A stretch of 47,685 bases of DNA, from the IMG/VR virus record IMGVR_UViG_2513237200_000007; one strand, 5' to 3'. This DNA comes from a virus. Taxonomy: Duplodnaviria; Heunggongvirae; Uroviricota; Caudoviricetes. The notes beneath the pieces were generated by a model. The model was not told the origin of the DNA, searched no databases, and saw only the letters and a program-made list of their open reading frames with translations. Both the position numbers and the translations under genes were made by a program. Positions 1 through 47,249 of the stretch are shown here, one piece after another (position 1 is the stretch's first letter; each line of letters starts with the position of its first letter).

Positions 1-107
1 CTTGTTGTCTGATTATTGATTTTTCGCGAAACCATTTGATCATATGACAAGATGTGTATCCACCTTAACTTAATGATTTTTACCAAAATCATTAGGGGAT
101 TCATCAG
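1..107 (-). mobile_element. IS10 outside-end fragment; element continues beyond window start
   Basis: Positions 1-107 are identical to 19451-19557, the outside end and transposase 5' leader of the complete IS10 copy in the same orientation; the transposase ATG would lie just outside the window. Confidence 0.9.
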
Positions 108-169: not shown

Positions 170-1465
170 TTAATTTTTCATTGCTTCGTTATGGGGCATG
201 GTTGGGGCAAACTCGCTTAACTGTGTATTTAACAAAGCTACCTGTGCATTATTGTTTTCAGACATCCATTTTCCGTATACCTGAAATACCATTTGCGCAT
301 CTGCATGGCCCATCTGGTTTGCTATAAATGCCGGGTTAGCACCAGCTGTCAGCGACCAGCAGGCATAAGTATGTCTCGACTGATATGATTTTCGATGGCG
401 GAGTCCGGCACGTTTTATCGCTGCGTCCCACATCTGCCTTATTGAGTCAACGGTAAAATGGTCACCATAATTTTTTACTCTCGCTGACACTTCAGGTTGA
501 AAAACAAAGGTGCATTTTTGTTTTTCTGTTCTGCCATACTCTCTGAGGTGAACATCAATGATATGCTCTTTGCTCAGTCTCGTTAATGTCATCTGACTCC
601 GGAGAGCGTCGATTGCTGGCTTAATAAGATGAATGACCCGATTGGTTCCCGCCTGTGTTTTTGGTACCGTGAAACGGTCTTTTGCTAAATTTCTCCTGAT
701 CATCATTGTTCCATTTTTCAGATCTATGTCCTCCCATCCAAGTGCACACAGCTCACCAGGGCGAACTCCAGTATAAACAGAAACACACCATAAATTTTTT
801 GCTTGCTGATTTCTGCACGCATCGATAAGACGGATAAATTCTTCCCGCGAAAGAGGATCCGGAATGGTTCTTGATTCCTTTAATGGCGAGATCCCCTTAA
901 ACGGATTATCTGCCAGGTAACCGTTATCAACACCAAACTGGAACACGGCGTTAAGATTTGTCATGTAATTATTTACAGTTACAGCCGATCTCCCTAGTTG
1001 TGTAACAATATAGTTACTTTTGGGGATCTGGTATCCAGTCAGTAACTCTTTACGAACCTCCAGTAATTTTTCTTTATTAATCGATGAGGCAAGATTTTTT
1101 TCACCGATTATGCTCAGGATATTTTTGATGACGGCACGGTATGTGTTGAGTGATGTTTTGGCGACTTCAGTTTCTTTCAGTGCCAGAAATTTTTCAGCCA
1201 GTTCTTTTATGGTTAAATCTTGTCGGGCCTCACCAAATTTTTCCAGATTGCGTGAGGAGGGAAACTGTTTTGCATAGTCGAAAACACCAGTTTTTATTGC
1301 GTAACAAACAGAGGAGCGTAGTTCACCTGCAACGCGCCTGTTTTTTGCTGTGTCAGGAACCCCCAGATTTTCCCTGACTCTTACGTCTTTATAAACAAAC
1401 CAGATACGTAATTTCCCTCCATGGTTTTCCACGCCTGTCGGATATTTCATTTCAACTTCTCTCAT
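170..1465 (-). CDS. int: phage integrase (tyrosine recombinase family)
   Basis: 431-aa ORF; C-terminal region has integrase-type R...HxxR...Y catalytic context (HADAQMVFQVYGKW, RHTYACW); sits at prophage edge next to an excisionase-like gene. Alternative start at Met6 (MKYPTG) possible. Confidence 0.9.
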   Translation of the reverse strand: MREVEMKYPTGVENHGGKLRIWFVYKDVRVRENLGVPDTAKNRRVAGELRSSVCYAIKTGVFDYAKQFPSSRNLEKFGEARQDLTIKELAEKFLALKETEVAKTSLNTYRAVIKNILSIIGEKNLASSINKEKLLEVRKELLTGYQIPKSNYIVTQLGRSAVTVNNYMTNLNAVFQFGVDNGYLADNPFKGISPLKESRTIPDPLSREEFIRLIDACRNQQAKNLWCVSVYTGVRPGELCALGWEDIDLKNGTMMIRRNLAKDRFTVPKTQAGTNRVIHLIKPAIDALRSQMTLTRLSKEHIIDVHLREYGRTEKQKCTFVFQPEVSARVKNYGDHFTVDSIRQMWDAAIKRAGLRHRKSYQSRHTYACWSLTAGANPAFIANQMGHADAQMVFQVYGKWMSENNNAQVALLNTQLSEFAPTMPHNEAMKN

Positions 1466-1484
1466 TAGTTAGTGTGGCTTTTAG

Positions 1485-1736
1485 TCAAGTAAGATGACGT
1501 CTTGGTCTCGCTGATGCCTGGCGCTCAATCCAGCGATCAATTTCTTCCAGGTTGTAAAAGCATGGACTGTTATCCCATGGCATACCGTCATGAGCGACAT
1601 GCTTATATTCCCTTCCTTCCATAAACGATTTTTCCCGGGCCTTTTTTAACGTACCTTTTTTTATTCCTTTCAGCGCAATTAACTGCTCTTCGGATACCCA
1701 TTTGCCGGGAGAGACAATCATGATTACTTCGCTCAT
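1485..1736 (-). CDS. xis: excisionase-like small DNA-binding protein
   Basis: 83-aa ORF immediately upstream of int on the same strand, 19-nt spacing; size and position typical of Xis. Confidence 0.6.
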   Translation of the reverse strand: MSEVIMIVSPGKWVSEEQLIALKGIKKGTLKKAREKSFMEGREYKHVAHDGMPWDNSPCFYNLEEIDRWIERQASARPRRHLT

Positions 1737-1808
1737 CGATTTCTTTATCTCTTACATCAGACGAGCGCCGGTTGCAGAATACCAGTCACAACCGGCGACA
1801 GTTGAACA

Positions 1809-4286
1809 TTAAGAATCAGCCTGACTCGGGATCAGTTTTTGCCAGATAACTGAAACGTATTTTGCCTGGTAACGGGCGTCATCAAGTGCATTATGGCGCT
1901 CACCTTCGAATGGAATAGCCGTTCTGGCATCGAAGTCTATGGCTTTCCCCAGCTCAACGATTGTGCGTACATCGCGATCGTTGTAGTAACGCCACGGGCA
2001 GGGGATCCCCTGCCGTTCGTATGAACGGCGCAAAATCGTGTTGTCGAAGTTGGCTCCATTTCCCCAAACCTGAACAAAAAATTCACCGGAGTTTTCGTCG
2101 ATAAATTCTCGCAATTGTAACAGTGCATCATCTAACGGGATTTCATCGGTCATAATGGCAGATTGCGCTTCGCGTGATTGCTTAAGCCACCATTTAATGG
2201 TGTCCCGATCAATGACTCCGCCAGCAGTTTCCAGATCGATAGTCTTACTAAATTCCGGTCCCATATCTCCGGTTTGCGGATCGAAAAATATTGCACCTAT
2301 TGAGATGATCGGGGCATCAGGATTTTTTCCCATGGTTTCAAGGTCGATCATTAGATGGTCACACGTCCTGCTGGTGGATGTGATTTCGTGATGACCGTTC
2401 ACCTTAATTGGGTGATCTGCCGTCTCGCCAGTTTCATTATCGCTATTGTGATGCTGATTGCCGCCAGTGTTCTCCTTGTGTGGATGTTCAGCGCCTTCCA
2501 TTTCCTCCGGATCATCTTCCTGAACTTCAACCTGATACTCTTCATCGAATGTTTCTTGGTATGTTGCGTCGCCCATCACCGCGCCACAATCAGGGCAGTT
2601 GCCGCCGCCGGTCTGACCGCAGGCGGTGCAGACTTTTTCCACTTCCTGTTGCGCTACTGGTTCAGGCTGTTTCGTTTCTGGCTCGTTTTGTAACGCATTT
2701 GGACTGTTTTGTTCCGCTTTTTGGTAGTTCCGTTCCGATTCATGCTGGTTCTGGTTCACAGAATCGCGGGTCTGGAGCCCCTTAACCCATTTCGGATCAT
2801 TCGGGTCACTAATCCCTTCAACAAATTCACCACGTGATGCAGCAAGCAACTTATCGGCGTCAGGCTGGCTGATATTGGCTGCCTGCATAATTTTGTTTAC
2901 TTCGTCAGCGGTAACTTTTATCGGCTCTGGTTGTTCTGAATCTTCAGCGGTATCTACATTTTGCGGTAAGCCCGTGTATGTGCCATTTTTTCGGGCAAAA
3001 TATTCTTCTTTTGTGATTTCAGTGGCGCCAGCAGCCAGTGCCTTATCCAGACCAGAGAGTTTGTTTGCGCGACCGTATTTTTCTCCGTCCTTATCTGCGA
3101 AGAGGAAATAGAACGGCCCCTCACGCTCTACAGATGGTTCAGCTTCCGGCGCGGTTTCATTTTTTGGGATATCAGATACCTCAGTTTCCACTGCATCAGT
3201 TTGTGTTTCTGATGACTGGAGAACATCAACAGTGCCCAGGTCTGTTTCTTCATTCTCAAACACGCCCTTTGTCGTCAGGTATTCGCAGATATATTTGTTC
3301 AGTGCTACGGGATCTTTGTGAATGTCGATCGGACGCTCACGGACAAGGCCAAAAATAGTTTGGCGGTCGTAGCGAAGGGCATCAGGCTGTTTGCGCATTG
3401 ATGCCGAGATACGCTTCCAGTCTTCGCGGTCGTTGTCGATAACTTCTTTTTTTGCCCAGCGATGGATGCTGCCGTCAATGTTTCCGGCATCCACATCACT
3501 AGGCCAGAGAGCGTAGGCCAGTTCGTCATCCAGTGTTTTCCATGTCTGCTTGTATTCGCGATGAATGGCAGCAATGACCGGGCTGATTTTTCCTGTTGAA
3601 TTTTCAGTGTACTGTTGATTGGCTCTGGCTCTGGCGCGGGCGAGATCAACAACAGACGTGTATTTTCCGGTTTCCTTGCGTTCACCTTCGCGACGTTTTT
3701 TCCAGATGCGCATCTCTGCCTGAATTTCGGGCCATTTAGCACCAGGAATACATTTATGCTTAACCCACCCAATGGCGTGCAACTTAAGCTCCGGATACAT
3801 GGCGTTAACTTCTGGCATTTTCATCAACGCTTCAACGATATGTCCGTCGAATGTTGCCATGTCTTCCTGCAACAATTCCTGTGCGCTAATAACCATATCA
3901 ACGGTGATGTTTTCACATGTGTCGAACTTAACCATGACAGCGTTCTGTACTTCAGGGGCCAGCTTGTCAAAAGTGACGTTCATCGGATCGGATTCAGTCT
4001 CAACCGGGACAAAAGAAGCAGACTCCTCATCCCAGCGGTTTTCCTGCATATATTCAGCATCCCATGAATCGAGGGCAGGGCGGGGTATGCCAGGTTTATC
4101 CTCGCAGACAATAAATTTATAAGCGCAGTCCTGAGCAGCCGGATAATGTTCCAGGAATTGCCAGTGAAATTTTGCTCGAGCACGGCGTTCGTCGCCAGCT
4201 TCAATGGCTGTGGCTACAGCCACAGCGCCTTCTTCCCTTGTTGCCAGTTCGTCAGGAATAGCGGCGCAAATAAAGACTTTACTCAT
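1809..4286 (-). CDS. RecE-like exonuclease (exodeoxyribonuclease VIII-like) with C-terminal DEDDh 3'-5' exonuclease domain
   Basis: Start taken at MSKVF (ATG 4284-4286) rather than track start 4322. C-terminus has DnaQ-like motifs (MIDLETMG ... WGNGANFD ... HNALDDA); central CxxC...CxxC zinc finger (CTACGQTGGGNCPDCG); acidic linker. Appears to be the intact form of the gene that is fragmentary (ydfE) in K-12 Qin. Confidence 0.8.
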   Translation of the reverse strand: MSKVFICAAIPDELATREEGAVAVATAIEAGDERRARAKFHWQFLEHYPAAQDCAYKFIVCEDKPGIPRPALDSWDAEYMQENRWDEESASFVPVETESDPMNVTFDKLAPEVQNAVMVKFDTCENITVDMVISAQELLQEDMATFDGHIVEALMKMPEVNAMYPELKLHAIGWVKHKCIPGAKWPEIQAEMRIWKKRREGERKETGKYTSVVDLARARARANQQYTENSTGKISPVIAAIHREYKQTWKTLDDELAYALWPSDVDAGNIDGSIHRWAKKEVIDNDREDWKRISASMRKQPDALRYDRQTIFGLVRERPIDIHKDPVALNKYICEYLTTKGVFENEETDLGTVDVLQSSETQTDAVETEVSDIPKNETAPEAEPSVEREGPFYFLFADKDGEKYGRANKLSGLDKALAAGATEITKEEYFARKNGTYTGLPQNVDTAEDSEQPEPIKVTADEVNKIMQAANISQPDADKLLAASRGEFVEGISDPNDPKWVKGLQTRDSVNQNQHESERNYQKAEQNSPNALQNEPETKQPEPVAQQEVEKVCTACGQTGGGNCPDCGAVMGDATYQETFDEEYQVEVQEDDPEEMEGAEHPHKENTGGNQHHNSDNETGETADHPIKVNGHHEITSTSRTCDHLMIDLETMGKNPDAPIISIGAIFFDPQTGDMGPEFSKTIDLETAGGVIDRDTIKWWLKQSREAQSAIMTDEIPLDDALLQLREFIDENSGEFFVQVWGNGANFDNTILRRSYERQGIPCPWRYYNDRDVRTIVELGKAIDFDARTAIPFEGERHNALDDARYQAKYVSVIWQKLIPSQADS

Positions 4287-4378
4287 TTGTTTTAACCTCA
4301 TGACAGATTTAAGGATGAACAAATCCCTGCCATTGCTGGCATATAAGAATGAAACCGGATATTTATTACGGAACTGTT

Positions 4379-4570
4379 TTAAAGACCTGCCGGGATTTCG
4401 ATATTATCCTGGTGAATAACTTTATCGACCGGGTAACAGTTACCGGGAATTTTCTGTTCGGTTGCTGCAGTCATACACTCCTGCATTGTCCTGTGAACAC
4501 TGACTGCAATATCAACTGGCTCTCCGGAAACAAGAAAAACTGTCAGAACAAGCACAAATGCTGAATTCAT
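4379..4570 (-). CDS. ydfD: YdfD-like small protein with N-terminal hydrophobic segment (lysis-associated in Qin)
   Basis: 63 aa from MNSAFVLVLTVFLVSG; its ATG (4568-4570) overlaps the dicB stop (4567-4569), the ATGA coupling seen in the Qin dicB operon. Confidence 0.75.
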   Translation of the reverse strand: MNSAFVLVLTVFLVSGEPVDIAVSVHRTMQECMTAATEQKIPGNCYPVDKVIHQDNIEIPAGL

Positions 4571-4755
4571 TGTGCACATCCTTTTGGCATCAGACGTAAA
4601 CGAGCCAGCATTGAAACAATGCATATTTTATTTAATAGCTCCCGTTCTTGTTTTCTCTTGTTAATGGCATCTTCAGTAAATACTGGGTTACTGATAGTGA
4701 CACCAATTTCAAAACAACCTTCAGACGTATTAACGTTTGGTAATAACGTTTTCAT
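4567..4755 (-). CDS. dicB: cell division inhibitor DicB
   Basis: 62 aa, MKTLLPNVNTSEGCFEIGVTISNPVFTEDAINKRKQERELL..., recognised as DicB from memory; SD GAGGA upstream; located immediately 3' of DicF on same strand. Confidence 0.8.
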   Translation of the reverse strand: MKTLLPNVNTSEGCFEIGVTISNPVFTEDAINKRKQERELLNKICIVSMLARLRLMPKGCAQ

Positions 4756-4924
4756 TATCGCGTCCTCAACAATGAATTTTGTGATGCAGTGCCTGGTGCC
4801 TCCAGGTGACGTTAACCAGTTAACAATTAACGCCGGATACAGAGAATCCACCCATAACACTGTTTTTGGTTTTAACTGTTCCGCGTGCGCTCAGCCGCAT
4901 TCACCACATCACAAAATTCACTTT

Positions 4925-4982
4925 AAAAAGGGCGGCAGAGCAGTCACGGAGTAAAACTGATACCGCCAAACGTCACCAGAAA
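4925..4982 (-). ncRNA. dicF: DicF small regulatory RNA (ftsZ-targeting sRNA) with intrinsic terminator hairpin
   Basis: Reverse complement of 4930-4982 reads TTTCTGGTGACGTTTGGCGGTATCAGTTTTACTCCGTGACTGCTCTGCCGCCC, matching DicF as I recall it; followed by a T-run; sits between ydfC and dicB as in Qin. Confidence 0.85.
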
Positions 4983-5322
4983 ATTGATAACAGAGGGCGT
5001 TGCAGCGGGGTTGTCACTTAAGCGTATGATCAACCTGACAACCCGGTGTCCTCAACGGGGAAGGAATAACCCCGCCATACTTACCGCCGCGCCATTTCGC
5101 GGGTTGCCACAACCGGAAGCGCACGGTCGACGAAAATTTAACGACAGGCTATCTATGAACCAGCTACCTCGCCGTGCGCTTTCGCGTTATGGTCTGACTT
5201 TTCAGGGAAATATCCTTTCAGTAAACTGTCAGTTCCGGATGCGCACCCGTGTCCGGCGCACGCACTCCACCTCACCCGTGGAGAACTCCTTAATTACTAA
5301 CCTTAGCTTTGTTGATTAGCTA

Positions 5323-5541
5323 CTAACGCGGGTATGTAATCATTCTGGCAATGCTTAATGCCGCTGCTTTTTCCAGATTGGTGATATCCTGCTCCAGAGC
5401 GGACAGATTTTCAGCCTGCTTAGCCCTGGCTTCATTAGCCCATTTCAGATCCTGCGCTGCATTAATTTTCTGGCGCATCCACTCATAAAGTTCATCATCG
5501 GTATAGTCTGGCGCGATGATGACGGGTTCTCGTTTCTGCAT
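5323..5541 (-). CDS. ydfC: YdfC-like protein
   Basis: 72-aa ORF in the dicA-distal operon, order and size matching ydfC of Qin. Confidence 0.7.
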   Translation of the reverse strand: MQKREPVIIAPDYTDDELYEWMRQKINAAQDLKWANEARAKQAENLSALEQDITNLEKAAALSIARMITYPR

Positions 5542-5570
5542 ACTGATTCCTCGCGGTGCTGTTTCGCTTA

Positions 5571-5699
5571 TCAGCCGTTAGATTTTGCCGAACTGGAAAG
5601 CGCCTGTTTAAACTCACTGAAGCTGAGAGCTTCTTCGCCTTCGGCAAGGCCTTCGAAGTATTCTTCGTAAGCCTTTTCCATGATTGTGTCGAAATCCAT
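5571..5699 (-). CDS. ydfB: YdfB-like small protein (42 aa; below ORF-track size cutoff)
   Basis: Hand translation of minus strand from ATG 5697-5699: MDFDTIMEKAYEEYFEGLAEGEEALSFSEFKQALSSSAKSNG, stop at 5571-5573; start is 2 nt after the ydfA stop, implying translational coupling. Confidence 0.6.
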   Translation of the reverse strand: MDFDTIMEKAYEEYFEGLAEGEEALSFSEFKQALSSSAKSNG

Positions 5700-5700
5700 A

Positions 5701-5856
5701 TCACTCACCTGAGTTTCTTTCCAGCCAGCGACGGGCACCATTTTCGGTTTTAAACGTTTTGCTTTTGGTATACGTCATTGCGGTGAACGTGCCGTCCTGG
5801 TTTGGAAACACGCCGTACACCAGAGATTCGTTGTTGCCAAGATCGATAGTATCCAT
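5701..5856 (-). CDS. ydfA: YdfA-like small protein
   Basis: 51 aa from MDTIDLGNNESLVYGVFPNQDGTF... (ATG 5854-5856); first gene downstream of dicA on the same strand. Confidence 0.7.
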   Translation of the reverse strand: MDTIDLGNNESLVYGVFPNQDGTFTAMTYTKSKTFKTENGARRWLERNSGE

Positions 5857-6022
5857 GCTGACCTCATTTCCCCTTAACGCTGGGGTAGCGGAACTGTTTG
5901 CTGAGAACACCGTGCGGTGTGTTGATGCAAACAAGATTAGCCATGACTAACATATCGGTCAAGTGATTTTGTATGCTATAGCTAACATAATTGATGTGGT
6001 AAAAGATAACTCATTGATGATG

Positions 6023-6430
6023 TTATCTTTTATTTGTCCGCTGACGGGCTTTTAGTAATTCTTCAAAGAGTTTATTGAAGTTTTTTACTCGAGCTCGCAT
6101 TTCGGCGAGCTGGGTATCCTGTTCTGATTCTGGCAGTGCATTAAACAGCTCAAGGAGCTCTAGTTCTTTGGGGGATAAGGCAACTGGCTTCTCAACAGGT
6201 GGTGTTGGTTGCTTGTCTTCATCGCCAAATAGAATCCATGTTGGTGAGCATTGCAATACTTTGCTGAGGGCAAAAAGGTTCTTCCCTGTAGGTTCACTAT
6301 CACCCCGTTCCCATTGTGATACAGACACATGGGAGATTTTCAGGGCTTTAGCAAGAGACCTTTGGGTGTGTTTGAGGTTTTTCCGACGATACCTGATGCG
6401 TTCGCCGATAGTTAAATTTTTTGTTTCCAT
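6023..6430 (-). CDS. dicA: HTH (XRE/cI-like) repressor DicA
   Basis: 135 aa, METKNLTIGERIRYRRKNLKHTQRSLAKALKISHVSVSQWERGDSEPTGKNLFALSKVL... with clear HTH_XRE motif; divergent from dicC. Confidence 0.85.
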   Translation of the reverse strand: METKNLTIGERIRYRRKNLKHTQRSLAKALKISHVSVSQWERGDSEPTGKNLFALSKVLQCSPTWILFGDEDKQPTPPVEKPVALSPKELELLELFNALPESEQDTQLAEMRARVKNFNKLFEELLKARQRTNKR

Positions 6431-6513
6431 AGTTAGCTAATGCTAAATCGTATTGACTATGTTTTTGTTAACATCTATCTTGTTAGTTATGACTAACAAT
6501 AAAGGTGTTTTAA
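6431..6513. promoter_or_regulatory. divergent dicA/dicC promoter-operator region
   Basis: 83-bp intergenic between divergently transcribed repressor genes; contains palindromes TTAGCTAA, GTTAAC and GTTAGTTATGACTAAC typical of repressor operators. Confidence 0.5.
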
Positions 6514-6744
6514 ATGCTTAAAACTGACGCTCTTTTGTATTTCGGTTCAAAAACAAAACTTGCACAAGCAGCAGGTATTCGTTTGGCTTCGCTTTATAGC
6601 TGGAAAGGGGATTTAGTTCCCGAAGGTCGCGCGATGCGTCTACAGGAGGCATCTGGCGGGGAGCTTCAGTATGATCCCAAAGTTTATGATGAATATCGTA
6701 AGACGAAGCGGGCGGGGCGGTTGAACAATGAAAATCACTCCTGA
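6514..6744 (+). CDS. dicC: Cro-like regulator DicC
   Basis: 76 aa, MLKTDALLYFGSKTKLAQAAGIRLASLYSWKGDLVPEGRAMRLQEASGG...; divergent partner of dicA. Confidence 0.8.
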   Translation: MLKTDALLYFGSKTKLAQAAGIRLASLYSWKGDLVPEGRAMRLQEASGGELQYDPKVYDEYRKTKRAGRLNNENHS

Positions 6745-7249
6745 ACAGGCTCGTGAGGCTCTGGATGCCTGGATATGTCGACCAGGAATGACACAGGAGC
6801 AGGCGACGATATTAATCACTGAAGCATTCTGGGCTTTGAAAGAGCGCCCGAACATCGATGTTCAGCGTGTCACATATGAAGGTGGCGCGATTGATCAGCG
6901 AGCGCTTGGCGTTAATCGAGTGAAGATATTTGAACGCTGGAAGGCTATCGACACCAGGGATAAGCGTGAAAAGTTCACGGCGCTAGTGCCTGCAATTATG
7001 GAGGCTATCCGGATTAATGATTTCAGGTTGTATCGTGAAATTACTGACGGAAAAAGCATCACGTGCATGATCGCCGGGTTAAACAAAGAATATGGCGATG
7101 TGGTGGAGTCCGGACTGCTTTTTGCTGATCCTGCCGTAGTGGATCGTGAAACTGACGAACTTATAGAAAAAGCAATTGCTTTCAAACTTGCGTATCGACA
7201 GCAATACCAACAAAAAGCTGGATGGAATTATGAGCCTTCTTTTTGCTGA
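6728..7249 (+). CDS. YdfX-like protein (intact form; CII-position regulatory or YdaT-like protein)
   Basis: 173-aa ORF overlapping dicC end by 17 nt; N-terminus MKITPEQAREALDAWICRPGMTQEQ... resembles the ydfX fragment of K-12 Qin as I recall it; function not established. Confidence 0.55.
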   Translation: MKITPEQAREALDAWICRPGMTQEQATILITEAFWALKERPNIDVQRVTYEGGAIDQRALGVNRVKIFERWKAIDTRDKREKFTALVPAIMEAIRINDFRLYREITDGKSITCMIAGLNKEYGDVVESGLLFADPAVVDRETDELIEKAIAFKLAYRQQYQQKAGWNYEPSFC

Positions 7250-8195
7250 ACGCCCACTGGTTATAAACACGCAGCTGGCAATGAAAATTGGCTTAAACGA
7301 AGCCATTGTTTTGCAACAACTGCACTACTGGTTGAGAGATACCAACTCCGGCATGGAATGTGATGGTGTTCGCTGGATTTATAACACAACGGAACAATGG
7401 CTGGAACAGTTCCCATTCTGGTCAGAGTCAACGTTAAAGCGCGCGTTTGCAAGTCTGAAAACGCTGGGGCTTTTGCGTTGTGAAAAGCTCAATAAATCAA
7501 AGCGCGATATGACCAATTTCTACACGATCAACTATGGGAGCGAGCTTTTAGATGGTGGCAAATTGAGCGAATCCATCGGTTCAAAATGCGCCGCTCCATC
7601 AGGTCAAAATGACACGATGGAAGAGGTCAAAATGAAACGCTCCATTGGTTCAAAACGACCCAATGTCATCGGGTCAAAATGGCCTGATGATCTTACAGAG
7701 AATACAACAGAGATTACTACAGAGAATAAAAACACTTTTCGTCCGGAAGCTTCGCAACCGGACCCGCAGACGACTGAACAGGATTTTTTAACCCGGAACT
7801 CCGACGCGGTTGTGTTTAGTGCGAAAAAACGCCAGTGGGGTAGCAGGGAGGATTTGGCGTGTGCGCAGTGGATCTGGGGGCGGATCGTGGGTCTCTACGA
7901 ACAGGCAGCCAGTGATGATGGCGAGATCATGCGACCAAAAGAGCCTAACTGGACTGCCTGGGCCAATGACGTGCGCACAATGCGGATGCTGGATGGCAGA
8001 AGCCACAGACAAATTTGCGAAATGTTTGGTCGGGTTCAGCGAGATCCATTCTGGGTAAAAAACATCATGAGCCCGTCAAAGCTCCGCGAAAAATGGGACG
8101 AACTGGTCATCCGCCTGGGACGTTCACCTGTACAGCGTTGTGTTAATCATATTTCTGAACCGGATACAGAAATTCCGCCTGGTTTCAGAGGATAA
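7230..8195 (+). CDS. phage replication initiation protein (O-like, N-terminal DNA-binding domain)
   Basis: Start at MSLLFAERPLVINTQLAMKIGLNEAIVLQQLHYWL (ATG 7230); contains an internal iteron array at the DNA level, as lambda O contains ori. Confidence 0.65.
   Translation: MSLLFAERPLVINTQLAMKIGLNEAIVLQQLHYWLRDTNSGMECDGVRWIYNTTEQWLEQFPFWSESTLKRAFASLKTLGLLRCEKLNKSKRDMTNFYTINYGSELLDGGKLSESIGSKCAAPSGQNDTMEEVKMKRSIGSKRPNVIGSKWPDDLTENTTEITTENKNTFRPEASQPDPQTTEQDFLTRNSDAVVFSAKKRQWGSREDLACAQWIWGRIVGLYEQAASDDGEIMRPKEPNWTAWANDVRTMRMLDGRSHRQICEMFGRVQRDPFWVKNIMSPSKLREKWDELVIRLGRSPVQRCVNHISEPDTEIPPGFRG
7571..7681 (+). repeat. five direct iterons with about 23-bp periodicity inside the replication gene, followed by an AT-rich stretch (putative ori)
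   Basis: Cores GGTTCAAAATG (7578), GGTCAAAATG (7602), GGTCAAAATG (7625), GGTTCAAAACG (7648), GGGTCAAAATG (7671); followed by AT-rich 7683-7745. Confidence 0.6.
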
Positions 8196-8235
8196 GTGTT
8201 GATTTCAGGTCATGAGGTAATTTTAAGGGGGACTT

Positions 8236-8658
8236 GTGGCAAAAGTTTTTACACAAGAAGAGCGGGAAAAAATTAAATGGCAGGTGGTGGAACTCGTGCG
8301 CCAGAGCGGCCGTGAGACGTTACGGCAACTGGAAGCTAAAACAGGTGCGACTAGATATCTGATGAGCGTTCTTGCCAGAGAGCTGGTAGCCAGTGGCGAT
8401 GTATACAACTCCGGCTACGGGTTATTCCCCTCTGAACAGGCGCGTAAGGACTGGCAAAACGCCCGCAAAAAACTCTCGAGGGCAAAGGTGAAGAAACCTG
8501 CTGTGGTTGATCCGGACCTTATCTGGTCATCACCTGACGGAGAAATACGTCGCTACGACAGTCGCCTAAACATAATCTGTCGCGAGTGCCGGAAGAGCGA
8601 AGTTATGCAGCGCATACTGGCTTTCTATCAGGGTAATTTTCAGGACGTGGCGCAGTGA
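8236..8658 (+). CDS. hypothetical protein (GTG start), translationally coupled to the downstream methyltransferase remnant
   Basis: 140-aa ORF with strong SD AAGGGGG 4-5 nt upstream of GTG 8236; stop overlaps the GTG of the next ORF (GTGA). No recognisable motif beyond a C-terminal CxxC. Confidence 0.5.
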   Translation: MAKVFTQEEREKIKWQVVELVRQSGRETLRQLEAKTGATRYLMSVLARELVASGDVYNSGYGLFPSEQARKDWQNARKKLSRAKVKKPAVVDPDLIWSSPDGEIRRYDSRLNIICRECRKSEVMQRILAFYQGNFQDVAQ

Positions 8659-9101
8659 GTGCACCGGCAACCATTCTTGATATGTGCTGTGGCAGCCGCA
8701 TGTTCTGGTTCGATAAGTCTGACGAACGGGCGATATTCAGCGATATCAGAAAAGAAGGATACACATTACGCAATGGGAGACGCTTGATTATCAGCCCTGA
8801 CATTATCGCAGATTTTCGTGCATTATCATTTGCAGACGCATCTTTTTCGATGGTTGTATTAGACCCTCCGCATCTTGAGAGTGTTGGTGATAACGCCTGG
8901 ATGGGAAAGAAATATGGACGGCTGAATAAAGATGCCTGGCGTGATGATTCGCGACAGAGATTTAAAGAAGCCTTTCGGGTGTTGAGGCCGCACGGCGTTC
9001 TGATTTTTTAATGGAATGAAACGCAAATACCGGTAAGCCAGATTCTGGCACTGACAGACAGAAAACCTGTTATCTGTCAACGAACAGGGAAAAAACGATA
9101 A
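8655..9101 (+). pseudogene. DNA methyltransferase remnant, truncated by in-frame TAA at 9009-9011
   Basis: N-terminal SAM-binding-like LDMCCGSR and catalytic-like VLDPPH motifs within 118 aa, then TAA; frame stays open a further 29 codons to the stop at 9099-9101; too short for a functional MTase. Confidence 0.45.
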
Positions 9102-10343: not shown

Positions 10344-10599
10344 ATACAGCGAACTCCATTGGTTTAGTTGGATATTTACTGTGCTGGACAAAAACGGTTT
10401 GCGGGGAAATCTTAGTTAAGTAGAATGACTGCGGGTGCTTGAGGCTATCTGCCTCGGGCATGGACACCAACGGCAGATAGAGAAAAGCCCCAGTTAACAT
10501 TACGCGTCCTGCAAGACGCTTAACATTAATCTGAGGCCAATTTCATGCTAGACACATGTAGGTTAGCCTCTTACGTGCCGAAAGGCACGGAGAAGCAGG

Positions 10600-12050
10600 C
10601 TATTGTTAACACCAAGCTGTAATGTCCCCTTTGAACCATTCTAAAATGTCCCCAGACAATTCTCTCGTGGATTTTTCATGATCAAAGAGACTGTTACGAT
10701 GAGTCATAAGGAACTCCACCGACTTCAGATTATTCAGGAACAAGCTGCGGCACGCATTGGCATTTCTATTCGGCAGGTTAAACGTCTGGTGCAACGGTAT
10801 AGAAATGAAGGGCCTTCTGGTCTGGTTTCCCACCGACGTGGAAAGCGTCCTAATAATTCCTTTTCTACTGAATTCAGAGCAACAGTAATTTCACTCCTCA
10901 AAGGCCGTTACGCTGATTTTGGACCTACGTTTGCGTGCGAAAAATTGCGCGAGATACACGGTTTATCTTTATCCGTTGAAACTCTCAGAAAGTGGATGAT
11001 AGAAGAGGGGTTATGGCGTGAACGCCGTCGTAAAATTGCCCGTATATATCAACGCCGCATGCGACGACCATCTTACGGTGAACTGATCCAGATTGATGGC
11101 TCACCTCATGACTGGTTTGAAAATCGAGGCCCCAGATGTACACTGATCGTTTTCATTGATGATGCCACCAGTGCGTTGATGGCGTTGCGTTTTGTGCCTG
11201 CTGAAACAACCCGGGCTTACATGGAAACCCTCCGGGGTTACCTTAATGATCATGGCGTACCGCTCGCTCTCTACTCTGATAGACACAGTATATTCAGGGT
11301 AAATAACCCAGAGCGGGAAGGTGAGCTGACCCAGTTCACTCGTGCGATAAAGACACTGGGCATCGAGCCAATCCATGCCAACAGCCCGCAGGCAAAAGGG
11401 CGGGTAGAGCGCGCCAATCAGACACTACAGGACAGGCTGGTCAAAGAAATGCGGCTTCAGAATATCAGTGATATTGAAACAGCAAATGCATGGTTGCCGA
11501 CCTTTATTGAAGCCTATAACAACCGGTTCGCTACGTCGCCTCGTACTACTGATAATGCTCATCTTGATGTGCACCATTCTGAAGAGGAACTGGGTTATAT
11601 CTTCAGCCTACAGGCGAAGCGCGTTCTGTCTAAAAATCTCACTTTCCAGTACAAAAGCAGTGCGTTTCAGGTACGCAGTGAGGGCCGGGGATATCGACTT
11701 AGGCATTCGGTTGTTACTGTATGCGAGAACTTTGACGGTGAAATTAACGTTCTGTATGACGGGAAAGCGCTGGGCTGGGAAAAGTATGTTGATGGCCCGG
11801 AGCCTATACCACTGGATGATGAAAAGAGTGTCCATGAACGAGTGGATAATGCCCGTATTGATTTACGCTCAAAATACTATGTTAAACCTAAAGCTGACCA
11901 TCCCTGGCTTACGCGCCGAACGCAAAGTCATCAGCAAGTTAAGCCCCCGAAGTTACCTAAAAAGAAGCCTGATCCCGATAAAAAAGATTGAAACCAAGAT
12001 CGATTCGGTTGAGTGCATATCCATTCATAGGGTAGATTCTTAAGTCGCGT
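10600..12050 (+). mobile_element. insertion sequence carrying an rve-type DDE transposase (IS481/ISNCY-like); ends not resolved
   Basis: Single transposase ORF with flanking non-coding sequence, lying where K-12 Qin has only pseudogenes; I could not identify terminal inverted repeats by eye, so coordinates are approximate. Confidence 0.35.
10678..11991 (+). CDS. DDE transposase with N-terminal HTH and retroviral-integrase-like (rve) catalytic core
   Basis: 437 aa; N-terminal HTH (HRLQIIQEQAAARIGISIRQVKRLVQRY), catalytic D (IQIDGSPHDWF), D (YSDRHSIF), E (KGRVERANQTLQDRL). Possible alternative start at MSHKEL (10699). Confidence 0.8.
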   Translation: MIKETVTMSHKELHRLQIIQEQAAARIGISIRQVKRLVQRYRNEGPSGLVSHRRGKRPNNSFSTEFRATVISLLKGRYADFGPTFACEKLREIHGLSLSVETLRKWMIEEGLWRERRRKIARIYQRRMRRPSYGELIQIDGSPHDWFENRGPRCTLIVFIDDATSALMALRFVPAETTRAYMETLRGYLNDHGVPLALYSDRHSIFRVNNPEREGELTQFTRAIKTLGIEPIHANSPQAKGRVERANQTLQDRLVKEMRLQNISDIETANAWLPTFIEAYNNRFATSPRTTDNAHLDVHHSEEELGYIFSLQAKRVLSKNLTFQYKSSAFQVRSEGRGYRLRHSVVTVCENFDGEINVLYDGKALGWEKYVDGPEPIPLDDEKSVHERVDNARIDLRSKYYVKPKADHPWLTRRTQSHQQVKPPKLPKKKPDPDKKD

Positions 12051-17310: not shown

Positions 17311-17610
17311 AAAAATTCCTTAATACTGATAACTTGGCGCACTATACACACGTTCCTGAAGAAAGCTATAGTTTTTTGATGGGGTTGAAGATGGCTGGAT
17401 GTCTAAAATAAACATTGCTTCATATGTTCAACTATGCGTTAATGATTGCGTCGGTTTGAAGAACAGACGATATACGAAGTAGTTTACTAAAGCAGTTCTC
17501 ATTTCAGGTGTTATTCACTTATTCCTTCTTTGAGTCTCTCCAATTAAGTACGAAGTCGTTTCTGTTATGCAAACCATTTATGCCGAAAGGCTCAAGTTAA
17601 GGAATGTAGA

Positions 17611-17826
17611 ATGTCAAATAAAATGACTGGTTTAGTAAAATGGTTTAACGCTGATAAAGGTTTCGGCTTTATTTCTCCTGTTGATGGTAGTAAAGATGTG
17701 TTTGTGCATTTTTCTGCGATTCAGAATGATAATTATCGAACCTTATTTGAAGGTCAAAAGGTTACCTTCTCTATAGAGAGTGGTGCTAAAGGTCCTGCAG
17801 CAGCAAATGTCATCATTACTGATTAA
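17611..17826 (+). CDS. cspB: cold-shock protein CspB-like
   Basis: 71 aa, [38 protein letters not shown]...; RNP1/RNP2 motifs; long 5' leader typical of csp genes. Confidence 0.9.
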
Positions 17827-18107
17827 AATTCATCGCTCGTCTGTATACGATAACGAAGAAGGCTGATGCCTGAGTAGAGATACGGACAGAGTAGTGAATA
17901 TTGGATCTCTTTAATAAAAAGTAAGGAGGTCCAATACATGAAACAATGGCTAGCATATTTGGCAAAATCTTAATCAGGAAAAGTATGCTAACCATTGTGG
18001 TGAAGTGCAGGTTTGCTGCATGAATAGTTTTACAGCAGAAGCTAACTGCTGGCATGGCAAAACAAAGTGCGTAAGTGGATGACTCCCACAAAAAGCACCA
18101 CAATCTC

Positions 18108-18228: not shown

Positions 18229-19557
18229 CTGAGAGATCCCCTCATAATTTCCCCAAAGCGTAACCATGTGTGAATAAATTTTGAGCTAGTAGGGTTGCAG
18301 CCACGAGTAAGTCTTCCCTTGTTATTGTGTAGCCAGAATGCCGCAAAACTTCCATGCCTAAGCGAACTGTTGAGAGTACGTTTCGATTTCTGACTGTGTT
18401 AGCCTGGAAGTGCTTGTCCCAACCTTGTTTCTGAGCATGAACGCCCGCAAGCCAACATGTTAGTTGAAGCATCAGGGCGATTAGCAGCATGATATCAAAA
18501 CGCTCTGAGCTGCTCGTTCGGCTATGGCGTAGGCCTAGTCCGTAGGCAGGACTTTTCAAGTCTCGGAAGGTTTCTTCAATCTGCATTCGCTTCGAATAGA
18601 TATTAACAAGTTGTTTGGGTGTTCGAATTTCAACAGGTAAGTTAGTTGCTAGAACCCATGGCTCCTTTGCCGACGCTGAGTAGATTTTAGGTGACGGGTG
18701 GTGACAATGAGTCCGTGTCGAGCGCTGATTTTTTCGGCCTTTAGAGCGAGATTTATACAATAGAATTTGGCATGAGATTGGATTGCTTTTAGTCAGCCTC
18801 TTATAGCCTAAAGTCTTTGAGTGACTAGATGACATATCATGTAAGTTGCTGATAGGTTTCCAGTTTTCCGCTCCTAGGTCTGCATATTGTACTTTTCCTC
18901 TTACTCGACTTAACCAGTACCAACCCAGCTTCTCAACGGATTTATACCATGGCACTTTAAAGCCAGCATCACTGACAATGAGCGGTGTGGTGTTACTCGG
19001 TAGAATGCTCGCAAGGTCGGCTAGAAATTGGTCATGAGCTTTCTTTGAACATTGCTCTGAAAGCGGGAACGCTTTCTCATAAAGAGTAACAGAACGACCG
19101 TGTAGTGCGACTGAAGCTCGCAATACCATAAGTCGTTTTTGCTCACGAATATCAGACCAGTCAACAAGTACAATGGGCATCGTATTGCCCGAACAGATAA
19201 AGCTAGCATGCCAACGGTATACAGCGAGTCGCTCTTTGTGGAGGTGACGATTACCTAACAATCGGTCGATTCGTTTGATGTTATGTTTTGTTCTCGCTTT
19301 GGTTGGCAGGTTACGGCCAAGTTCGGTAAGAGTGAGAGTTTTACAGTCAAGTAATGCGTGGCAAGCCAACGTTAAGCTGTTGAGTCGTTTTAAGTGTAAT
19401 TCGGGGCAGAATTGGTAAAGAGAGTCGTGTAAAATATCGAGTTCGCACATCTTGTTGTCTGATTATTGATTTTTCGCGAAACCATTTGATCATATGACAA
19501 GATGTGTATCCACCTTAACTTAATGATTTTTACCAAAATCATTAGGGGATTCATCAG
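18229..19557 (-). mobile_element. complete IS10 (1329 bp)
   Basis: Inside end CTGAGAGATCCCCTCATAATTTCCCC at 18229; outside end ...GGGGATTCATCAG ending at 19557; single 402-aa transposase; flanked by 9-bp direct repeat. Confidence 0.95.
18242..19450 (-). CDS. IS10 transposase
   Basis: 402 aa, MCELDILHDSLYQFCPELHLKRLNSLTLACHALLDCKTLTLTELGRNL..., recognised as the IS10/Tn10 transposase. Confidence 0.95.
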   Translation of the reverse strand: MCELDILHDSLYQFCPELHLKRLNSLTLACHALLDCKTLTLTELGRNLPTKARTKHNIKRIDRLLGNRHLHKERLAVYRWHASFICSGNTMPIVLVDWSDIREQKRLMVLRASVALHGRSVTLYEKAFPLSEQCSKKAHDQFLADLASILPSNTTPLIVSDAGFKVPWYKSVEKLGWYWLSRVRGKVQYADLGAENWKPISNLHDMSSSHSKTLGYKRLTKSNPISCQILLYKSRSKGRKNQRSTRTHCHHPSPKIYSASAKEPWVLATNLPVEIRTPKQLVNIYSKRMQIEETFRDLKSPAYGLGLRHSRTSSSERFDIMLLIALMLQLTCWLAGVHAQKQGWDKHFQANTVRNRNVLSTVRLGMEVLRHSGYTITREDLLVAATLLAQNLFTHGYALGKL

Positions 19558-21473: not shown

Positions 21474-21835
21474 GGTAATATTAAATCGGAACATTTACAT
21501 CGCGGAATGTAAAATTTAAATAAAAAGGACTCTTCCATGAGCCAAAATTCCTGAAATCTTAAGGGTAAGATAAAAGGTCTTAATCAGAATGACACGTTTT
21601 ATTAATAAATAAAGCTATTCTTTCATTGCTGTGTTTTTCTTTACAAAAGTAATCCTTGCTATGGGTGGTTAATCATGCGTTAATGGTGTTCTGGTTTGTT
21701 ACAAATTTATCTGAAGCAGTCATTGTTATAATTTTATTATTTGTACCTCTTGAGATTTCCTTGTTGGTTTTTCTCTCTGATATTTTTTTTCGGACCATTC
21801 TGCCCAAGGGCTAATTTCTTCAAAAGGTAATAATT

Positions 21836-22048
21836 ATGTCTAACAAAATGACTGGTTTAGTGAAATGGTTTAACCCTGAAAAAGGTTTTGGTTTCATCAC
21901 GCCGAAAGATGGCAGCAAAGATGTGTTTGTCCATTTCTCAGCAATTCAGAGCAACGATTTCAAAACATTAACTGAGAATCAGGAAGTTGAATTTGGTATT
22001 GAGAACGGACCTAAAGGTCCTGCCGCTGTTCATGTAGTGGCGCTTTGA
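21836..22048 (+). CDS. cspI: cold-shock protein CspI-like
   Basis: 70 aa, [45 protein letters not shown]... Confidence 0.9.
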
Positions 22049-22136
22049 GGTAGACAATATTACAAACCATATTCACTTTAGATGCCCGTGTTGTCATGGT
22101 TCCCAGTATAGAACATCATCTTTTGATGTTTCTGAC

Positions 22137-46674: not shown

Positions 46675-47249
46675 TGGCATTCAGAATGAGTGAACAACCA
46701 CGGACCATAAAAATTTATAATCTGCTGGCCGGAACTAATGAATTTATTGGTGAAGGTGATGCATATATTCCGCCTCATACAGGTCTGCCAGCAAACAGTA
46801 CCGATATTGCACCGCCAGATATTCCGGCTGGCTTCGTGGCTGTTTTCAACAGTGATGAGTCATCGTGGCATCTCGTTGAAGATCATCGGGGTAAAACGGT
46901 TTATGACGTGGCTTCCGGCGACGCGTTATTTATTTCTGAACTCGGTCCGTTACCGGAAAATGTTACCTGGTTATCGCCGGAAGGGGAGTTTCAGAAGTGG
47001 AACGGCACAGCCTGGGTGAAGGATACGGAAGCAGAAAAACTGTTCCGGATCCGGGAGGCGGAAGAAACAAAAAACAACCTGATGCAGGTAGCCAGTGAGC
47101 ATATTGCGCCGCTTCAGGATGCTGCAGATCTGGAAATTGCAACGGAGGAAGAAATCTCGTTGCTGGAAGCATGGAAAAAGTATCGGGTATTGCTGAACCG
47201 TGTTGATACGTCAACTGCACAGGATATTGAATGGCCAGCACTGCCGTAG
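46674..47249 (+). CDS. tfa: tail fibre assembly protein Tfa
   Basis: 191 aa, [78 protein letters not shown]...; start overlaps stf stop (TAATG). Confidence 0.9.

Follow-up and report, generated by a model that had tools for sequence, protein, structure and literature searches.

What would a temperate phage do with a large exonuclease that resembles RecE in its middle, ends in a nuclease of another fold, and has no annealing protein beside it? The question is raised by a gene in a 47,685-nucleotide stretch of DNA from a virus of the Caudoviricetes (IMG/VR record IMGVR_UViG_2513237200_000007), hereafter the window. The list of open reading frames (ORFs) contains the gene as a complete coding sequence of 825 amino acids (1809..4286, minus strand), whose product is referred to here as the Qin-type prophage exonuclease. 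It is nearly certain that this is an early protein of Qin/mEp460-type lambdoid prophages and that it consists of three parts: a YdfE-type N-terminus, a RecE-like middle region, and a DexA-type DEDDh nuclease that replaces the PD-(D/E)xK nuclease of RecE. A role in DNA-end processing or recombination, suggested by the protein's relatives, has slightly less than an even chance of being correct. The architecture and this role together form the best explanation as a whole, to which we assign a probability of roughly 0.5.

The C-terminal domain (residues 644 to 815; 1842..2357, minus strand) matches the Pfam family PF16473 (Rv2179c-like 3'-5' exonuclease) over model positions 2-177 of 177, with an E value of 2.4e-67 and 226.5 bits against a cut-off of 27. 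The catalytic residues are intact (D648 and E650 in Exo I, D748 in Exo II, and H798-x4-D803 in Exo III), and all five are invariant in alignments with 25 homologues and T4 DexA. Sequence searches of the PDB matched only T4 DexA (8KEL/8KEN), at E values of 1.6e-6 with the single sequence and 1.4e-15 with a profile, and the profile search returned no other chain at E <= 0.01. The AlphaFold model of residues 631-825 (predicted local distance difference test [pLDDT], 85.6; predicted template modeling score [pTM], 0.83) found 8kel_A as its top match in Foldseek (E 2.4e-11; TM, 0.72), followed by RNase T, oligoribonuclease (Orn), and REXO2. No similarity to the PD-(D/E)xK domain of RecE (residues ~564/606-866) was detected, as the BLASTP alignment to RecE covers residues 264-629 only and a phmmer search with RecE residues 601-866 was empty across the window. 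These profile and structure searches bear out the initial annotation, which had read DEDDh motifs instead of the PD-(D/E)xK fold at this end of the protein, and the domain is confidently predicted to be a DEDDh/DnaQ-like 3'-5' exonuclease with an intact two-metal active site and a fold closest to that of T4 DexA. T4 DexA, the closest solved relative by both sequence profile and fold, has the same DEDDh residues but is a free-standing 227-residue protein of a virulent phage, with extra loops and an identity of about 21-26%.

The middle region and linker (residues 264-629; 2400..3497, minus strand) align by BLASTP to residues 278-592 of K-12 RecE with 39% identity (E 2e-61). The second half of this region is far closer to RecE, with nucleotides 1431-1873 of the gene being 78% identical to nucleotides 1365-1765 of recE, and this block holds a zinc-ribbon-like motif and an acidic tract. 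A regular-expression search of the translation placed the motif at C553-x2-C556-x7-C564-x2-C567 (CTAC-GQTGGGN-CPDC; 2586..2630, minus strand); the paired cysteines had been recognized from the start, but their spacing is seven residues and not the nine first given. RecE carries the same motif (CNACGQTGGDNCPDC), which is found in only 1 of the 67 long relatives surveyed below. The long acidic linker, likewise part of the initial annotation, contains 14 D/E and 0-1 K/R residues per 40-residue window across residues 561-620, is most acidic at residues 575-600 (2487..2564, minus strand), and is conserved with residues 540-575 of RecE. A second acidic stretch, with 11 D/E per 40 residues, lies around residues 341-400.

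The first 263 residues (3498..4286, minus strand) form a YdfE-type N-terminal module without resemblance to RecE, as the BLASTP alignment starts at residue 264; the RecE-like N-terminal and linker region originally proposed thus holds for the middle and linker and fails for the N-terminus. The module constitutes a PHROG of its own (phrog_5943), its homologues carry the newer Pfam identifiers PF27430 and PF27432 in precomputed hits, and its first 258 residues are 99% identical to the Qin pseudogene ydfE (b1577) of K-12. Relatives of the N-terminal 350 residues numbered 171 among 1.84 billion cluster representatives. The NCBIfam RecE equivalog (PRK09709/NF007259) scored 281.6 bits against a cut-off of 1269 and was matched at model positions 271-600 of 877 only. 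Overall, the protein shares with RecE (exonuclease VIII of the Rac prophage) the middle region with its zinc ribbon and acidic linker, the large size, and a place in the early-left operon upstream of xis-int, whereas RecE has a different N-terminus of ~270 residues, a PD-(D/E)xK nuclease of 5'-3' polarity in place of the DEDDh 3'-5' nuclease, and an adjacent recT, which is missing here.

As an object, the gene is already known, since RefSeq, PHROGs, and Pfam contain it together with its family and domain architecture. Its DNA is 100% identical to that of the 'exonuclease' WP_000048348.1 of E. coli W, and likewise to copies in ATCC 8739 and other strains. The ATG start at 4286 is preceded by GAGG at 4299-4296, 9 nucleotides upstream, and the same start was chosen for the E. 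coli W copy by the Prokaryotic Genome Annotation Pipeline (PGAP) of RefSeq, which labels the copies 'exonuclease', '3'-5' exonuclease', or, in some cases, '3'-5' exoribonuclease'. A match to phrog_2082 ('exonuclease') spans the full length of the protein. Among 5426 complete E. coli genomes, 3536 (about 65%) hold at least 80% of the gene and 4799 have some match to it, at a median of two places per matching genome. The related phage records mEp460 and Evi contain full-length copies at 84-89% identity, and the DEDDh domain is conserved across Enterobacterales prophages. With a PHROG, PGAP labels, and such a distribution, the architecture is not the unusual one that it had first been taken for.

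The window and the E. coli W prophage between ydfJ' and rspB are collinear and 99.99-100% identical, apart from an inserted IS10 and a further IS10 end with which the window begins. That prophage, in which the order is dicA, ydfA, ydfB, ydfC, DicF, dicB, ydfD, the exonuclease gene, xis, int, and rspB, is a complete version of the cryptic prophage Qin of K-12. In K-12, ydfE occupies the same locus in the same order (dicB-ydfD-ydfE...intQ next to rspB); it is an N-terminal fragment cut by IS2E, whereas the window has the whole 825-residue gene with its nuclease domain. Judged by sequence and position, the exonuclease gene is the intact ortholog of this pseudogene.

An annealing protein gene was sought across the prophage and its relatives. 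No stop-to-stop ORF of at least 40 amino acids in the whole window matched RecT, lambda Bet, P22 Erf, a Rad52-like profile, lambda Exo, or Gam in phmmer/hmmsearch searches, even at E <= 10. A six-frame Pfam scan of 4287-9100 detected no annealase and only DicB, DUF1482, DUF1391, a cI-like helix-turn-helix protein, a Cro-like protein, YdaT, and DUF977. A hidden annealase or a lambda-type Exo/Gam in the window was rejected on these empty searches. Nor is an annealase listed by PGAP for the near-identical prophage of E. coli W, and the kil/dicB-ydfD-exo-xis-int order recurs without one in the related phage records mEp460, Evi, and vB_EcoS-640R1. The DEDDh domain was further traced to 80 loci of different species, comprising 24 large fusions and 56 stand-alone genes of ~190 amino acids. 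An Erf gene lay within 8 kb in 2 of the 80, and RecT, Bet, or Rad52-like genes lay within that distance in none, in single-seed searches that divergent annealase families could escape. With xis-int immediately adjacent and annealase genes lacking from both the prophage and its close relatives, the locus does not encode a classical exonuclease-annealase (Red/RecET) pair, which agrees with what had been supposed from the missing RecT/Bet partner and the position directly before xis-int. Two-component recombinases (Red, RecET, and SynExo) need a 5'-3' exonuclease and an adjacent gene for an annealing protein, a combination that this locus does not have.

The relatives of the protein place its nuclease in a wider series. 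Among 67 cluster representatives of at least 450 amino acids, a YdfE-type or RecE-type N-terminus is joined through a common middle region to varied C-terminal heads: a DEDDh domain in 12, a RecE-type PD-(D/E)xK domain in 12, and a domain of ~250 residues in 20, while no head was detected in the remaining 23, some of which may be truncated or bear other heads. The ~250-residue domain corresponds to phrog_7838 ('exonuclease') and has the motifs TSIN..YM.MRATE.FGP.G.GWG and KKSLTDA.KKALS.LGFSADV. It appears to be a Rad52-like annealase, given that some of its stand-alone homologues (E ~1e-67) are named 'Rad52/Rad22 family DNA repair protein' and some carry precomputed PF04098, and that 5 of 10 members gave weak matches to Pfam Rad52_Rad22 (best E, 0.0096). 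A sequence-profile search of the PDB with this domain had no match, and a comparison with human RAD52 by hhalign aligned the expected motif without reaching significance (E 0.032; probability, 1.6%). In Pectobacterium phage ZF40 and Pseudomonas phage Orisa03, the domain adjoins a Sipho_Gp157 gene.

Several members of the family deserve mention in their own right. Gp07 of Pectobacterium phage ZF40 (locus L009 in our survey, 3705-5870) and its relatives (phrog_2489, 'exonuclease'), among them the representatives P0299, P0251, and P0259, have the YdfE-type N-terminus fused to the apparent Rad52-like domain. Gp07, annotated as a 'putative exonuclease', occupies the same position before int as the Qin exonuclease gene but differs in that its C-terminal head is this putative annealase and not a nuclease; the 'exonuclease' label of phrog_2489 and phrog_7838 is probably wrong. 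A further representative (P0246, 702 amino acids) combines the YdfE-type N-terminus and middle region with ~270 C-terminal residues unlike all three heads; these residues match nothing but the C-terminal portion of phrog_26058 (function unknown) and may represent a fourth head type. The DEDDh head also exists without the scaffold, as stand-alone DexA-like exonucleases of ~180-190 residues, which lack the N-terminal and RecE-like regions of the Qin protein, are 57-87% identical to its residues 646-825, and are encoded just upstream of xis/int in Enterobacterales prophages. At these loci (L025-L090), conserved upstream genes encode proteins of ~275 (25 loci), ~179 (21 loci), and ~304 (7 loci) amino acids, which by eye we take to be YfdQ-like, YfdR-like (HD domain), and RdgC-like, respectively, and which could hint at function. 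The mosaic pattern, in which the same scaffold is fitted with nucleases of opposite polarity or with a Rad52-like annealase, was not described in the literature that we searched.

That a single scaffold carries a RecE nuclease, a DEDDh nuclease, or an apparent Rad52-like annealase points to DNA-end processing in phage recombination. Following prophage derepression or infection, the Qin-type protein would, with Mg2+ as cofactor, digest DNA from its 3' ends in the 3'-to-5' direction, removing 3' tails or flaps, or else resecting ends, in the course of phage recombination or replication. By way of its RecE-like scaffold, the nuclease would reach the DNA-end or recombination context in which RecE and the Rad52-like fusions are presumed to act, and the exonuclease would cooperate with host recombination functions without a dedicated phage annealase. 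Its nearest solved relative, T4 DexA, is described as acting in intron homing, a process of double-strand-break repair, as well as in scavenging of host DNA (PMC12153337). Our literature searches on PF16473, on Rv2179c with phage, and on ydfE returned no work on the function of the Qin exonuclease.

Several points weigh against this role. We infer the substrate (DNA or RNA) and the polarity from homology alone, and the Pfam family is named after an exoribonuclease, a name also borne by some of the PGAP copies. A 3'-5' exonuclease yields 5' overhangs, which are no substrate for the known phage annealases or for RecA loading. The N-terminal part gave a poor structure model, and its fold search was without an informative match. 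Finally, the idea that the scaffold targets the nuclease is speculation, because the function of the N-terminal and middle region of RecE is itself unknown (review, PMC11611040); our searches found no study of that region.

The position of the gene bears on when such an activity would be available. The exonuclease gene is the last of the DicA-repressed dicB-ydfD early-left operon, just before xis-int. When the PGAP genes of E. coli W are projected onto the window, ydfD falls at 4379-4570 and dicB at 4567-4755 (both minus strand); the six-frame scan recovered them as Pfam DUF1482 and DicB. Downstream, the ORFs and the PGAP annotation of E. coli W place the excisionase gene xis at 1485-1736 and the site-specific integrase gene int at 170-1450/1465 (both minus strand). 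In K-12, the DicA-repressed dicB promoter is reported to transcribe dicB, ydfD, and the pseudogenes ydfE, insD7, and intQ (bioRxiv 10.1101/2024.09.21.614188). A scan for sigma-70-like sites on the coding strand found none in 1400-6600, although it was a weak scan that missed known early promoters too. Since the operon is DicA-repressed and no promoter of its own was detected, the gene is most likely silent in the lysogen and expressed upon derepression or infection. The operon also includes the small RNA DicF (4930-4981, minus strand; Rfam RF00039, 76.7 bits), which falls between ydfC and dicB, where there is no ORF. Between the stop codon of the exonuclease gene and the start of xis, two 8-bp arms, GCCGGTTG ... 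CAACCGGC, form an inverted repeat around a 14-nucleotide loop (1767-1796, minus strand); the repeat lacks a T-run, was not flagged by the terminator scan, and may be an element for RNA processing or attenuation.

The first alternative to be weighed is a prophage defence nuclease of the HREX type, which would degrade the 5-hydroxymethylcytosine (5hmC)-containing DNA of superinfecting T-even phages and spare host DNA. Its model is EcD, an E. coli homologue of DexA in which the DEDDh residues are reported to be conserved; EcD is reported to digest the T4 genome and not unmodified double-stranded DNA and to protect cells when supplied from a plasmid, and Escherichia is said to supply more bacterial DexA homologues than any other source (PMC12153337). 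The Qin exonuclease gene is prophage-borne, and DexA is the closest solved relative of its nuclease domain. However, the gene should be silent in a lysogen, since its early operon is under DicA repression and the promoter scan detected none that belongs to it alone. The 5hmC-recognition residues W152 and D169 of DexA (PMC12153337) correspond to Y768 and A782 in a MAFFT alignment at ~26% identity. For the DexA tetramer residue D90, which is A78 in EcD, HMMER pairs the D of L-D-D-A (residues 717-720), in a gapped region with an A directly after it. EcD itself (HAK9828821.1; MIDTET at the start and TIPETYD at the end, as deduced from primers) is not among the 120 homologues listed for the domain, its 3' primer sequence had no BLAST match in complete E. 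coli genomes, and PADLOC gave only a weak generic DEDDh match (E 1.8e-5). Compared by description and by its primer-derived ends, EcD is a short stand-alone protein with other termini, whereas the Qin exonuclease is a large fusion protein whose gene belongs to a repressed phage operon. We consider such a defence function unlikely.

A second alternative is a 3'-5' exoribonuclease that trims or degrades host or phage transcripts or small RNAs, in the manner of Rv2179c of M. tuberculosis, the founder of the family. In its favor are the Pfam name 'Rv2179c-like 3'-5' exoribonuclease', the many PGAP copies labeled '3'-5' exoribonuclease', and the presence of RNase T, oligoribonuclease, and REXO2 as the structural neighbors after DexA. 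Nevertheless, the one PDB chain found by the domain profile is a DNA exonuclease, and the domain sits on a scaffold shared with RecE, in the place of a DNA exonuclease or annealase. Because DNA is also cut by RNase T and Orn-type enzymes, the fold neighbors do not discriminate between substrates. An RNA-directed function is, in our estimate, quite improbable.

Rather than serving recombination, the nuclease might degrade DNA in bulk, either to scavenge nucleotides or to attack host or competitor DNA during lytic growth. DexA has been described as a scavenger of host DNA (PMC12153337), and the gene is co-expressed with the host-toxic functions of dicB, dicF, and ydfD. Such a role would leave the sharing of the scaffold with RecE and with the Rad52-like fusions unexplained. 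In addition, temperate lambdoid phages are not known to degrade the host chromosome. We hold this explanation to be distinctly unlikely.

Far less credit can be given to the idea that the protein belongs to a classical two-component recombinase and that its annealase, located elsewhere in the prophage or within the N-terminal region, escaped detection. The RecE-like middle region does suggest a RecET-type descent, and the N-terminal 350 residues have no assigned function. Against it stand the ORFs of the whole window, the Pfam scan of the early region, the PGAP annotation, the mEp460, Evi, and 640R1 records, and 78 of the 80 related loci, all of which were empty; moreover, RecT pairs with the C-terminal nuclease domain of RecE, which is absent here. 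Barely credible is a decaying, functionless remnant of a defective prophage, for although the K-12 ortholog is a pseudogene cut by IS2 and Qin is cryptic, the pseudogene reading was rejected on the intact ORF, the retention of all catalytic residues, and the conservation of the gene in complete E. coli genomes, in mEp460 and Evi, and, as a domain, across Enterobacterales prophages.

Elsewhere in the window, an IS10 copy that is not in the E. coli W prophage was found at 18229-19557, with a 402-residue transposase ORF (18242..19450, minus strand) and RNA-OUT at 19443-19512. A second IS10 end (RNA-OUT 1-62) makes up the first ~106 bases of the window (1-106), just beyond int, and the prophage junction on the int side is therefore unlike that of E. 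coli W. Rfam matches at 10433-10604, 17450-17842, 21690-22075, and 47017-47215 correspond to the sok antitoxin of hokD, two cspA-type thermoregulator leaders (cspB and cspI), and the IS009 small RNA, which are ordinary Qin content.

Returning to the DNA-end-processing reading, its broadest form is that the YdfE/RecE scaffold is a portable targeting platform on which temperate phages of Enterobacterales swap DNA-end heads, each fusion being a one-protein recombination function that uses host factors. We offer this generalization tentatively and think it rather doubtful. If true, the DEDDh version would serve recombination or repair with a polarity opposite to that of every known phage recombination exonuclease. 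The mosaic pattern is the part of our findings worth following up and provides a testable handle on the function of the scaffold. Should the DEDDh version prove to act in recombination, mEp460 and lambdoid phages like it would employ a recombination function unlike the Red/RecET model.

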